Virus record (IMG/VR): IMGVR_UViG_3300042539_001740
DNA: 64,000 bases
Origin: a virus
Lineage: Duplodnaviria; Caudoviricetes
Direction: 5' to 3' (one strand)
The notes below the pieces were generated by a model that saw only the letters and a list, made by a program, of their open reading frames with translations, did not search any database and had not been told where the DNA came from. Of this stretch, positions 28,149 to 31,930 are shown one piece after another. Position 1 is the stretch's first letter. The number at the start of each line of letters is the position of its first letter. A program made the translations under genes and the position numbers.

Positions 28149-30046
28149 TTTGATAGAGGTTTATTCATAATATAATCGTATAATTTTCTTTCGTCATTTT
28201 TGATGTTTTGAATCATACTTGGTCTAATGTGTCTATAGTTAAATAATGGTAGAGGTATTCTAACTCCCTTATACCCATTATTTCCTATTCTCCACCAAAA
28301 ATCATAATCCTCCCACCCTTTCATAGATTCATCATAACCTAACACATCGTCCCAAGCTTTTTTTCTGAACAAAGAACAACTTACAATAAAAGGCCCTCTT
28401 TTTAATCTACTCAATGACCATTCAGGTCTTTTTTCCATACCTTGTATAAAACCAATATGATTTGTATCACAATATATTGGACTCAAATTCTCATTCTTCT
28501 CAGCTTCATAAATTGCAAATAACAAATAGTTTTTATCAAATGTATCATCAACATCGTGTGGTAATATATAATATCCTTGTGAGGATTTAATAGCTGTATT
28601 TCTTGCTGCAGAAAGTCCTTTATTTCTTTCGTGATGTAAAACTTTAATATCACTATCTAAATTATTTAATATTTCCAAAGTTTTTGTATCACTCGACCCA
28701 TCATTAATAACGATAATTTCTTTATTTGAGTATGTTAAATCTTTAGCCGATTTTATTGCCTCAGGTAAATATTGACCATCGTTAAAACAAGGGATAATGA
28801 TACTAACTAGAGGACCTAAATTTTTAACGTATTTTTCTGTTAAAAATTTCAAACTCTTTTGATAGTTCTCTTGTTTAAATTGTTCAGAAACTTGTTGGGT
28901 TATATTGTTTTTATATTTTTCAATTATGTTATCTATGTTATTCAAATTACGAAACCAGTTCAAGTCAAATAAAAAACTATCATTACCAATCGACTCAAAA
29001 TTTTCAATTGGTGTTGTTGGGTAACACTTTTGAATAAAATCAGTTAATTCATCATCGAAAAGTTGAATTACATCAAAATCAATTTCTTTTATTTTATACA
29101 ACTGATTTATTTGTGTTGGTTGAAGACCATTTGGTGTGTTAATTTGCCATTTACCATCACCTAATTTATAACCGAAAGGTTCATTTATGGAACTTAAATT
29201 TATTCCTTCTCTTTTAGCTAAACTTGTTATTCTATTTCCCAAATTTGAACATATGTACAAATGATGACCTTTGTTTTTAAGTGACTTCACAAATTCGAAA
29301 ATGAATTTTTCTTTATTTGATTCCCCATTAAAATTAGTGGTTGAAATTAATATTTTTAATTTCTCGTTGGGGTGTATTTTTCTATTTAAGAATACAGGTA
29401 AATTATCTTCATATTTTGATGTGAATTTAATTCTGTTTTCCTCCCATTTAGAATTAGTCATCCCAATCGACTTATGATTAATTCTAATCTCTGTTGTTAC
29501 ACCTATTTTAACACCCGACAAGTAGTTATCAAAACAAAAAGATACATCATAAAAATGAAATCCTTGAAACTCTTCATTGAATGTTTTTTTTATTCTATTT
29601 TTGTCAATAGCAAAAAACAATCCATCAACAACAACAACTTCCTCTAAATTACTCCCCAAATCTTGTGAATATGATGATAACCAAGTTTTACCATTATGTG
29701 TATGTGCTACTTTTCCATACATTTTTTTCATATCTTCCCACCATCTACCCGATGTGGACAAAAACTTTGTACCCGCAACACCAACTACTCCATAATCTAA
29801 ATTTCTATCAAAAATTTTGAGTAGTTTGTTACCCCATTGATTAGTTTCAATAGTCAAATCATCATGACAGAAAACAACTATACTATTTGAGGCTTGTGAT
29901 AAACCTCTATTATATGCCGAGGTTAGAGATTCACCATTATTAACGATTTCAATAACTTCCAACTTGTTATGTAAACCAGAAGTTTTAATTAAATGTTTTT
30001 TATGTTCTTCATTTGAAGTTCTTGTACAATATATTATAGTAATCAT
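28145..30046 (-). CDS. Multi-domain glycosyltransferase (GT-A N-terminal domain plus C-terminal GT2)
   Basis: VFCHDD, VVDGLF, HFYD; LVSIIIPCFN, INDGSSD, GLSAARN, GWEDYDFW. Confidence 0.8.
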   Translation of the reverse strand: MITIIYCTRTSNEEHKKHLIKTSGLHNKLEVIEIVNNGESLTSAYNRGLSQASNSIVVFCHDDLTIETNQWGNKLLKIFDRNLDYGVVGVAGTKFLSTSGRWWEDMKKMYGKVAHTHNGKTWLSSYSQDLGSNLEEVVVVDGLFFAIDKNRIKKTFNEEFQGFHFYDVSFCFDNYLSGVKIGVTTEIRINHKSIGMTNSKWEENRIKFTSKYEDNLPVFLNRKIHPNEKLKILISTTNFNGESNKEKFIFEFVKSLKNKGHHLYICSNLGNRITSLAKREGINLSSINEPFGYKLGDGKWQINTPNGLQPTQINQLYKIKEIDFDVIQLFDDELTDFIQKCYPTTPIENFESIGNDSFLFDLNWFRNLNNIDNIIEKYKNNITQQVSEQFKQENYQKSLKFLTEKYVKNLGPLVSIIIPCFNDGQYLPEAIKSAKDLTYSNKEIIVINDGSSDTKTLEILNNLDSDIKVLHHERNKGLSAARNTAIKSSQGYYILPHDVDDTFDKNYLLFAIYEAEKNENLSPIYCDTNHIGFIQGMEKRPEWSLSRLKRGPFIVSCSLFRKKAWDDVLGYDESMKGWEDYDFWWRIGNNGYKGVRIPLPLFNYRHIRPSMIQNIKNDERKLYDYIMNKPLSK

Positions 30047-30345
30047 ATTCCTGTTGAGCCAAATCCGTTATCACCTCTGTCTTTTTGACCTAAATCTTTC
30101 TTTAGTTCCAAATCAACATATTTTCCGTTTATTACTGGACATAAAACTGCTTGTGCAATTTTCATTCCTTTTTTTATTGTTACTTGGTCTGAATTCGTAT
30201 TAAAAATTATAACTTTTACTTCACCCAAATAACCGCAATTATGTATCAAATGACTATTACAAAAGAAGTTATGATTATTACTTACTGTTATATCATAAGT
30301 TTGTTTTTTTTCTGATGTTATTTTTTTAATCTTCGTTGTTTTCAT
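30043..30345 (-). CDS. dut: Split dUTPase, C-terminal part: IntC (36 aa, ends HN) plus C-extein starting at Cys
   Basis: TYDITVSNNHNFFCNSHLIHN/CGYLGEV...IAQ...RGDNGFGSTG (dUTPase motifs 3-5). Confidence 0.9.
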   Translation of the reverse strand: MKTTKIKKITSEKKQTYDITVSNNHNFFCNSHLIHNCGYLGEVKVIIFNTNSDQVTIKKGMKIAQAVLCPVINGKYVDLELKKDLGQKDRGDNGFGSTGI

Positions 30346-31531
30346 ATATAAAATTTTTTAGTTCTTCAACTGAGTAAAACAATTTATAGTTTGGGTATTC
30401 TTTTAATGCAAATTGTTGTTTTACTAATACTTCCTCAGTTTCCCACCCCTTTAGTTCAATTAAAAAGATTTTACCATTGGCTAATTCAATGTAAAAATCA
30501 GGAACATAGTTTCTGTGTAGTCCATTATAAAAATATCTTATTCGAATACCATGTTTGTTCGTCCATCTTTTTATAAAATTAACTGAGTCAAAAAAAATCA
30601 TAGTTTCCAATTCATATGAGGATGAATATAAAAAGGTTTCATTTTCCTTTGATTCATATTTTCCTGTTTTATATTTGTTACTTGTATTACTTAATTTACC
30701 TGTACTATATAATTCAGAAATAATTTTTGACATATTTTCCCTAAACTCTTTTCCTTTTTCACATCTACCATCACCCAACACTTTTACGATTGATTTGATT
30801 GTTTTTTGTCTATACTCCTCATTTTCCCATCTTTCTTTTGATGTTTTTGATATTTTTTTTATTCTATCTTCAGATTTGACCCACTCTTTAAATTTTTCAC
30901 TTTTATGCCAATTGGTAAAACCTGAATAGATTTCGGGTGTTTCTTTATGTCTCTTTTTTATAATATTAGACATTTTATTTTTGAATTCAGATTTATTATG
31001 GGATACTTGTCTAGATTTTGTCATTTTTTGTTTATATTCAGTATCACTCCATTTAGTTTTTTGTTTCTCTGAAAATATTGTTGCATATTCTTTTGATTTA
31101 ACTAAATTACCTGGATATAACTCTTTGTATTCTTTTGAGGTTAATTTATGTTCAAATTTTAAATGTTCAACAATTGAATATTGTTTTTCAATCCCACAAA
31201 TTTTACATTTTACTGACATACTTATTATCTTTATTGATAAATAGTATCTTGGTTAAAAAAATACAATTATCTCATCATTTTCTTGTAAATCTTTGGCCAA
31301 AACAATCCCTTTATTTGTATAAATTTCTGAATTGGGGGTTACCTCAAGTACACCTTCTTCAGTCTCAATTTTCAATATATCTTGTACATTAGTGTCAAAA
31401 ATTTTAAGAACAATATCTTTTTCAATTTCTAAACTTTTTTCATTGAATGAAAATACTATATCATTTATTTTTAAATCCTTAATATGTTTTTCACCATTTA
31501 TAGTTAAAATTTTCATATCTTCAGAAAAACA
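30238..31531 (-). mobile_element. Split intein plus free-standing endonuclease ('fractured gene' element)
   Basis: IntN 31256-31531, endonuclease 30326-31219, IntC 30238-30345; removal restores PGTVD-CGYLGE. Confidence 0.85.
30326..31219 (-). CDS. Free-standing putative homing endonuclease (zinc finger, basic repeats, TnsA-like PD-(D/E)XK domain)
   Basis: CKIC...H...H; YSSSYE...YVPDF...IELKG; lies between the two dUTPase halves. Confidence 0.75.
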   Translation of the reverse strand: MSVKCKICGIEKQYSIVEHLKFEHKLTSKEYKELYPGNLVKSKEYATIFSEKQKTKWSDTEYKQKMTKSRQVSHNKSEFKNKMSNIIKKRHKETPEIYSGFTNWHKSEKFKEWVKSEDRIKKISKTSKERWENEEYRQKTIKSIVKVLGDGRCEKGKEFRENMSKIISELYSTGKLSNTSNKYKTGKYESKENETFLYSSSYELETMIFFDSVNFIKRWTNKHGIRIRYFYNGLHRNYVPDFYIELANGKIFLIELKGWETEEVLVKQQFALKEYPNYKLFYSVEELKNFIYENNED

Positions 31532-31930
31532 ATCCACAGTTCCTGGTGAATTTAATACAAATAAACCCTGATTTATTGCTAAACCACTTTTTGACCTTAC
31601 TTGTATTTCATAACCATCTTTGATGTCAAAGGCCAATCCTGTTGGTATTAAAGCTCTACCTAATGGGTTTACAACAATTTCTTCTGTTGAGTACAAGTCA
31701 AAGCCTGAGTCACTTATATAATTGTAACTAGGGTCAATAGCATCGGGATTAAGTTTAGTGTAACCAAGTATTTGTTTGGGGACATAATTCAACATTTCTT
31801 GTTCTAGTTGTTTAATGTCAACTCCATAAGTTTCATAGATAATATTGTAATCTATTTCATCTTCCTTTCCTTTTAAATAATTTTGTAAATCATCGACTTG
31901 TTTAAACAAATCTTTCATATTTCCTTGCAT
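31253..31930 (-). CDS. dut: Split dUTPase, N-terminal part: N-extein (133 aa) plus IntN (92 aa)
   Basis: DSGFDL, RSKSGLA, NSPGTVD/CFSEDMKILT...; ends in intein block B-like sequence followed by a stop codon. Confidence 0.9.
   Translation of the reverse strand: MQGNMKDLFKQVDDLQNYLKGKEDEIDYNIIYETYGVDIKQLEQEMLNYVPKQILGYTKLNPDAIDPSYNYISDSGFDLYSTEEIVVNPLGRALIPTGLAFDIKDGYEIQVRSKSGLAINQGLFVLNSPGTVDCFSEDMKILTINGEKHIKDLKINDIVFSFNEKSLEIEKDIVLKIFDTNVQDILKIETEEGVLEVTPNSEIYTNKGIVLAKDLQENDEIIVFF

Follow-up and report, generated by a model that had tools for sequence, protein, structure and literature searches.

Fractured genes are host genes that a split intein divides into two halves, with the gene of a free-standing endonuclease placed between these; they are known for example from gp41-1, NrdJ-1, NrdA-2 and IMPDH-1 (Dassa, London, Stoddard, Schueler-Furman, Pietrokovski 2009; PMC2677866). 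The hosts named in that work are gp41, IMPDH, DnaE, NrdA, NrdJ, DNA ligase, terminase and one protein of unknown function (PMC2677866). In addition, a contiguous intein is present in the dCTP deaminase of cyanophage vB_AphaS-CL131, and its self-excision was shown in E. coli (PMC6293099). Here we describe an interrupted dUTPase gene located in a stretch of 64,000 nucleotides, referred to as the window, of the IMG/VR virus record IMGVR_UViG_3300042539_001740. Three tightly packed open reading frames (ORFs) occupy positions 30043-31930 on the minus strand, as given by an ORF listing whose numbers were reproduced exactly by script. Their layout is that of the known class of fractured genes, of which they represent a new case. 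Very probably, a selfish cassette of 1,294 bp, composed of an N-terminal intein part (IntN), a spacer, a nuclease gene and a C-terminal intein part (IntC), has settled in motif 3 of the dUTPase directly after the catalytic Asp; the two halves would trans-splice to a dUTPase of 197 aa, and the nuclease would home into empty alleles.

The enzyme gene is broken once, into two ORFs of the same strand that jointly span the family profile. The Pfam dUTPase profile PF00692 is matched over positions 4-63 by the gene carrying the N-terminal half (N gene) and over 71-129 by the gene carrying the C-terminal half (C gene), and PHROG 135 (dUTPase) over positions 130-226 and 228-290, respectively; as these coordinates are consecutive across the two genes, the dUTPase halves abut in the family profile. 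IntN lies in frame at the end of the N half and IntC in frame at the start of the C half. Between them, and sharing their strand, the free-standing endonuclease-like gene follows a short non-coding spacer, and its 3' end overlaps the 5' end of the C gene by 20 nt. Once joined, the host parts (exteins) amount to 197 aa (133 + 64) and keep all five motifs of trimeric dUTPases, including the Asp of motif 3 and the GFGSTG of motif 5, as judged from the profiles and from an alignment to solved dUTPases. In the same alignment, Cys+1 is the position directly after the motif 3 Asp, which we take to be the equivalent of the catalytic base of E. coli dUTPase (Asp90). Residues 1-60 of the dUTPase (31751-31930, minus strand) form an acidic N-terminal extension that precedes the Pfam domain and is common to intein-bearing and intein-free relatives.

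Matches to the Hint, PT-HINT and Intein_splicing profiles are confined to the intein parts of both genes. On IntC, TIGR01443 (intein_Cterm) reaches 19.1 bits, above its cut-off of 15.6. The profiles of the N-terminal or whole splicing domain give significant E-values, with scores that stay under the curated cut-offs: 23.4 for PF14890 (cut-off 35.8), 23.3 for PF07591 (27.7) and 17.7 for TIGR01445 (24.5). A preliminary description made from the letters had read the N gene as ending in PGTVD followed by a 92-aa IntN that starts with CFSED and has a net charge of -10, and the C gene as a 36-aa IntC (+4) that ends in HN before CGYLGE; a script returned both readings to the residue. The proposal of a fractured gene, with a split intein around a free-standing endonuclease, is borne out as far as sequence can show. 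Moreover, the charge complementarity pointed out there is conserved across the family, with a mean net charge of -12.3 for IntN (range -8 to -15) and of +4.4 for IntC (range +2 to +7).

Uninterrupted dUTPases of 197-198 aa are present among the closest homologues. For example, the intact protein P0056 (locus L005) has exactly 197 aa, the length that the preliminary description had foreseen for an enzyme whose motif 3 would be rebuilt by trans-splicing. Its N-extein is identical to that of the window protein over 133 of 133 residues, and its C-extein shows three residue differences, one of which is a Ser at +1, an agreement far beyond chance. At the DNA level, 8 of 399 positions differ in the N-extein and 6 of 195 in the C-extein, that is, the two alleles are 98% identical. 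The empty allele of L005 reads GAT directly followed by AGT (Asp-Ser), and the window reads GAT, the cassette and then TGC (Asp...Cys). This comparison delimits the cassette to 1,294 bp (31531 down to 30238), together with a Ser-to-Cys change at +1. Since the residue at +1 varies among the relatives that were fetched (Ser, Asn or Gln), such a Cys scar should be tolerated. Another intein-free relative was found on a contig of 357 nt from another lake sample (run X20, record 7), which is about 92% identical to the window and joins 31533 to 30234 with four letters between. The run is labelled RNA-Seq but possibly contains DNA, and an interpretation of this contig as spliced RNA was rejected, as it is the allele of an intein-free relative reading Asp-Ser. 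No RNA run holding the locus was found, the sole possible RNA run having only this relative's intein-free allele.

Sequence comparison also suggests that the 1,294-bp cassette was recently mobile. The window was aligned over 10.7 kb with locus L088 from another assembly, and identity was calculated in steps of 150 nt. It is 57-93% in the upstream genes and 57-67% in the 5' part of the dUTPase gene, 90% in the last 150 nt of the N-extein, 95-100% in the cassette, 91% in the first 150 nt after the cassette, 79% in the next step, and around 50-60% in the downstream glycosyltransferase genes. Homing with co-conversion of the flanks would be expected to leave such a profile. The occupied and empty alleles that are 98% identical in lake water give a very clean picture of homing in wild phages, and the same picture emerges from a cassette that is ~99% identical between phages with neighbouring genes of just 50-88% identity. 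Among nine distinct loci, similarity is 69% for IntN, 82% for IntC, 66% for the nuclease and about 50% for the exteins. Locus L009 (542-2246) is a copy in decay, with an internal deletion in the nuclease gene (277 aa) and a C gene reduced to 56 aa, in which IntC is intact and the dUTPase C-extein is mostly deleted.

The best 120 clusters matched by the N half include 98 with a full-length IntN (91-99 aa) at the same site, 2 more with a truncated IntN, and 18 with an uninterrupted dUTPase, all of the latter with Ser at +1. The C half is matched by 335 clusters; among the 120 listed, nearly every IntC-bearing match has HN directly followed by Cys. An exhaustive search of representatives at 50% identity added dozens of clusters whose match ends at the end of IntN, and some further IntN-bearing clusters belong to much more distant dUTPase-like hosts, with junctions such as ...GLID/C and ...GIID/C. 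The names given to these proteins in the source databases are 'dUTPase' or none. At least 90% conservation across the family is observed for Cys1 and the following FSEDMKILT, the Thr of block B, YDITV, NHNFFCN (block F), HLIHN (block G) and Cys+1. Cys1 is present in the window locus and in 98 of 98 aligned IntN, a set selected by a pattern that requires Cys at position 1. The intein thus has the N-terminal nucleophile, the block F Asp/His, the block G His-Asn and the +1 nucleophile of class 1. An assignment to class 3 was rejected: Cys1 is present, the class-1 Asp of YDI occupies the place that we take to be that of the class-3 nucleophile, and the invariant Cys lies later in block F. The ratios of nonsynonymous to synonymous polymorphism (pN/pS) are 0.28 for IntN, 0.19 for IntC, 0.34 for the nuclease and 0.37-0.49 for the exteins, rough values with synonymous sites near saturation, and by this measure purifying selection acts on the nuclease as well as on IntN and IntC.

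Two side observations concern the C-terminal part. P0380, a cluster of the IntC + dUTPase-C type, is the sole exception among those listed, with Ser+1 (HN/SGYRGE); from its sequence, it would splice with the native Ser of the host and leave no scar. In addition, residue 29 of IntC, a Cys within the NHNFFCN of block F, is at least 90% conserved, and in the fold it is located close to the splice junction. It could pair with Cys1 or Cys+1 in a disulfide that acts as a redox switch, although this is pure speculation.

Binding of the two intein halves is supported by structure prediction. The model of the complex between IntN (residues 129-225) and IntC (residues 1-42) has a score of 0.78, with 0.01 for the best control; the mark applied to such models is reached by 51 of 78 solved complexes and by 2 of 108 mismatched pairs. 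The contacts are at least 93% shared between runs, the predicted local distance difference test (pLDDT) value of the partner is at least 78, and 36 of 36 IntC residues are within the modelled interface. We infer that the phage makes two polypeptides from the split dUTPase, whose acidic IntN and basic IntC would associate into a single HINT fold. Splicing of the class-1 type, relying on Cys1, the block B Thr, the block F Asp/His, the terminal His-Asn and Cys+1, would then release a 197-aa dUTPase carrying Cys where the intein-free alleles carry Ser. In co-infections, the nuclease most likely cuts intein-free dUTPase alleles, and repair of the cut allele would copy the cassette in, which corresponds to homing.

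Some observations weigh against a splicing intein. Block B reads TPNS, with the Thr of TxxH kept and a Ser in place of the His; its counterparts in the alignments are TGNH in the Spl DnaX mini-intein and TDEH in a related contiguous intein of the metagenomic protein P0214. Among the approximately 120 family members scored, the motif is invariably TxxS or TxxT, never with the His, which is described as the most conserved single residue of inteins and as essential in many of them (PMC6333167). Moreover, the scores obtained with Pfam Intein_splicing and TIGR01445 remain under the curated cut-offs, near-saturation of synonymous sites makes the selection ratios rough, and the score of the complex may partly reflect memory of solved split inteins. 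It is therefore worth considering an intein relic, whose halves would have stopped splicing with the loss of the block B His and would act as tight non-covalent docking domains for the dUTPase pieces. The absence of this His from every scored member is in line with such a relic, there is a precedent for a phage enzyme fragmented by a nuclease whose pieces assemble non-covalently (PMC3045599), and the complex model speaks to binding, not to chemistry. However, Cys1, the terminal His-Asn and Cys+1 hardly vary across about 100 clusters, a constancy that a mere docking role would not maintain, and the presence of the intein goes along with Cys+1 replacing the Ser of intein-free alleles, with one Ser+1 exception. 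An intein of about 128 aa retained beside the catalytic Asp of motif 3 would also probably block the active site of the trimer. Finally, a very small natural group of inteins, the orthologues of Tko CDC21-1, does splice although the block B His is missing, and inteins of this type have been reported to carry a bulky Leu at -1 (PMC6333167). A relic is therefore improbable in our opinion and, as the other catalytic residues are fixed under selection, we read the dUTPase element as a working intein with some compensation. More tentatively, it is possible that the family is a large and actively spreading one that splices efficiently without the block B His through an undescribed compensation, involving either the replacing Ser/Thr or the host catalytic Asp at -1, and that it is mobilised by a type of homing endonuclease, with a zinc finger and a TnsA-like PD-(D/E)XK domain, not previously linked to inteins. 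If this were true, the family would provide a split intein that differs in mechanism from gp41-1, NrdJ-1, IMPDH-1 and DnaE and is orthogonal to them.

The genomic context bears on two other explanations. The source record is an IMG/VR virus contig of 194.5 kb with 31% G+C, estimated to be around 66% complete, and it harbors a T4 gp23-type capsid gene; the source is a large T4-like phage from lake water. The cassette could have inactivated the phage dUTPase, leaving pieces that decay while the host enzyme does the work. dUTPase is dispensable in some phages, and L009 has lost most of its C-extein and part of its nuclease gene, as would be expected of a dead gene. This explanation nevertheless appears very unlikely, considering that the exteins keep all five dUTPase motifs at the pN/pS given above, that about 100 diverged clusters retain an intact N half and about 100 an intact C half, and that the fractured gene is the sole dUTPase gene of the record. 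The possibility of an artefact, already raised in the preliminary description, is that the three-gene layout results from assembly or gene calling in a partially complete metagenome assembly. Here, the comparison with read-derived contigs leaves practically no room for doubt: contigs from three lake runs, which may include the source sample, cover the locus and all its junctions with 0 differences, and one lake contig of 20.7 kb spans the entire 2.2 kb locus. All sampled words of the locus are present in 19 lake-water metagenome runs, the exact N-half protein was found on 95 contigs, and the same three-gene layout recurs in 20 other IMG/VR assemblies whose sequence has diverged. We thus regard an artefact as already refuted.

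The 297-aa protein encoded between the two halves is, according to its motifs and its structural model, a member of the PD-(D/E)XK superfamily with a TnsA-like core. In an alignment with 22 homologues, which are 54-79% identical to the window protein, a zinc-finger pattern of the C2H2 type, C-x2-C...H-x4-H (C5, C8, H19, H24), is invariant at the N-terminus. It is followed by about 150 aa of helical repeats with the motifs W..EY(R/K).K and EF(K/R).(K/N)MS, and by a C-terminal E203...P-D241...E255-x-K257 in which E/D/E/K are invariant. The AlphaFold2 (AF2) model has a pLDDT of 83.8 and an alpha/beta C-terminal domain, and its best Foldseek matches in the PDB are TnsA chains (E 7e-4 to 2e-3, prob 1.00); in NCBIfam, a family of restriction endonucleases is matched in part (9e-11), and there is also a TnsA-like match, which is weak. 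A Vsr-like (EDxHD) nuclease was rejected, given that Vsr has no Pfam match at E ≤ 0.1, that no Vsr-type chain is among the top 50 Foldseek matches, that the profile of the 22 homologues matches no Vsr or related PDB chain at E ≤ 10, and that the motif is the canonical E...PD...ExK. The similarity to TnsA, the endonuclease subunit of the Tn7 transposase, is limited to this nuclease core; unlike in TnsA, the core of the 297-aa protein is fused to a C2H2 zinc finger and helical repeats, and the protein is free-standing inside an intein. I-Ssp6803I provides a precedent for a homing endonuclease of the PD-(D/E)XK type. The gene is single-copy in the 194.5-kb record, and a homologous nuclease gene was found in 20 of 20 other intein-bearing IMG/VR loci examined. 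Distant relatives are annotated as endonucleases in Bacillus phages, and the position of one of them, in phage SP-15, falls beneath the annotation of a major capsid gene.

The spacer, of 33-40 nt across loci, is more conserved than the surrounding coding DNA. Nine loci were compared (the window, L006, L008, L009, L017-L019, L024 and L025), and the core ACTATTTATCAATAAAGATAA (gene strand) is kept in seven of them, with one substitution in L006 and one deletion in L025. The spacer can form a small hairpin (TTATC/GATAA), the outer stem of which reaches or covers the start codon of the nuclease gene; as only one compensatory pair was found, this structure is not proven. By analogy with the free-standing endonucleases of T4, the hairpin may serve in translational control. 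The coordinates of all parts of the locus are given in Table 1.

Table 1. Parts of the fractured dUTPase locus in the window
Feature	Position	Strand	Length	Description
dUTPase-N + IntN gene	31253-31930	-	225 aa	dUTPase at the start, Hint/intein N-part at the end
dUTPase N-extein	31532..31930	-	133 aa	extension of ~60 aa, motifs 1 and 2, first half of motif 3; last residues ...SPGTVD, Asp = -1
IntN	31256..31531	-	92 aa	Cys1, starts with CFSED; block B T-P-N-S; net charge -10; stop codon 31253-31255
Spacer	31220..31252	-	33 nt	between the stop of the N gene and the nuclease gene
Free-standing homing-endonuclease-like gene	30326..31219	-	297 aa	zinc finger + helical repeats + PD-(D/E)XK domain (alignment, AF2, Foldseek, NCBIfam)
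Nuclease domain	30329-30664	-	about residues 186-297	E203, D241, E255, K257
IntC + dUTPase-C gene	30043-30345	-	100 aa	intein C-part at the start, C-terminal third of dUTPase at the end
IntC	30238..30345	-	36 aa	blocks F and G (YDITV...NHNFFCN..LIHN); net charge +4
dUTPase C-extein	30046..30237	-	64 aa	starts with CGYLGE; rest of motif 3, motifs 4 and 5 (GFGSTG); Cys+1 codon 30235-30237; stop codon 30043-30045

Outside the window, the gp23-type major capsid ORF of the same record (G000:C1:156322-157938) is an open frame of 623 aa, presumably longer than the capsid protein of T4 itself, and its Pfam match is split between profile positions 3-62 and 117-356.

A search of phage genomes for dUTPase motif-3 inteins, as suggested in the preliminary description, located the family in about 100 IntN and 100 IntC protein clusters. 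Against deposited phage genomes, a megablast of the locus gave no match, and a tblastn of the N half gave only distant uninterrupted dUTPases with less than 40% identity. The tblastn alignments extend a few residues beyond the point of splicing, owing to a chance resemblance between the first residues of IntN and the C-extein. Contiguous dUTPase inteins inserted at the same point were found neither among the best 120 word-index matches nor among the best 150 matches of the representative search. Long matches that could be taken for such inteins were rejected, P0214 being radical-SAM-like and P0178, P0237 and P0198 being tandem dUTPases. P0214, a metagenomic protein of 316 aa with a radical-SAM-like CxxxCxxC, harbors a related one-piece mini-intein directly before this motif; a few residues past it, the N-part of another intein follows. 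Another metagenomic protein, P0205 (488 aa), has two dUTPase domains around a Cys-rich/HNH endonuclease-like region devoid of intein motifs, an alternative arrangement of a nuclease within a dUTPase. The preliminary description had not recognised dUTPase as a host of split inteins, and a full-text literature search, with most subscription journals and the intein databases outside its scope, likewise gave no paper naming a dUTPase split intein or pairing 'split intein' with dUTPase. Papers that mention inteins plus dUTPase or deoxyuridine treat the two separately, and two intein surveys or reviews are without dUTPase. Three features are thus undescribed in the literature searched: a dUTPase as host, with the break in motif 3 following the catalytic Asp, a nuclease of the zinc-finger + TnsA-like PD-(D/E)XK type in this arrangement, and the family-wide absence of the block B His in a fractured dUTPase intein. 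As the split dUTPase intein is common in lake metagenomes, it is new to this literature, not rare.

Protein ligation makes wide use of natural split inteins, the fast ones among which originate from the fractured gene class. A new and diverged pair that combines an IntC of 36 aa with strongly asymmetric charges and lacks the block B His is a candidate for an orthogonal tool. It is also a case from nature in which to examine how catalysis of the initial splicing step could proceed without the 'essential' histidine. Moreover, motif 3 of dUTPase is added to the intein sites, and the free-standing endonucleases located inside inteins gain a TnsA-like PD-(D/E)XK protein.

Like the inteins of the Tko CDC21-1 type, the dUTPase intein lacks the block B His and keeps the other splicing residues. 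However, it is naturally split, its -1 residue is the catalytic Asp of the host, and Ser/Thr occupies the position of the His, whereas the Tko CDC21-1-type inteins are, we assume, contiguous, archaeal and equipped with a nested endonuclease. The CL131 intein resembles it in having a host enzyme of the dUTPase/dCTP deaminase superfamily and a freshwater or brackish phage as carrier (PMC6293099). Unlike the split dUTPase intein, that of CL131 is in one piece, contains a nested HNH domain and keeps the block B His (TPDH). An insertion of the two at the same site was rejected, since the CL131 intein lies after ...GKSTYAR in the motif 2 region, 11-13 profile positions upstream (position 106 vs ~119 of the dCTP deaminase (DCD) profile, and ~59 vs ~70 of the dUTPase profile). 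The closest resemblance is to the fractured genes of 2009, which show the same order of host-N + IntN, short spacer, same-strand endonuclease gene and IntC + host-C, with spacers of 27-51 nt (33 nt here), IntN of 88-105 aa (92 aa here) and IntC of 33-54 aa (36 aa here), and among which cases with a negative N-part and a positive C-part are also known (PMC2677866). IntC resembles the C-terminal parts of the gp41-1 and NrdJ-1 inteins, the sequence similarity to these inteins being marginal (E 0.006-0.07). The dUTPase locus differs from the 2009 set in its host, which is absent from those named there (PMC2677866), and in block B, where the 2009 inteins all keep Thr and His and the dUTPase intein has Ser/Thr for His. 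It differs, finally, in its endonuclease: with a TnsA-like PD-(D/E)XK motif and no Vsr match, it belongs to neither of the two types found in the 2009 fractured genes, GIY-YIG and Vsr-like.

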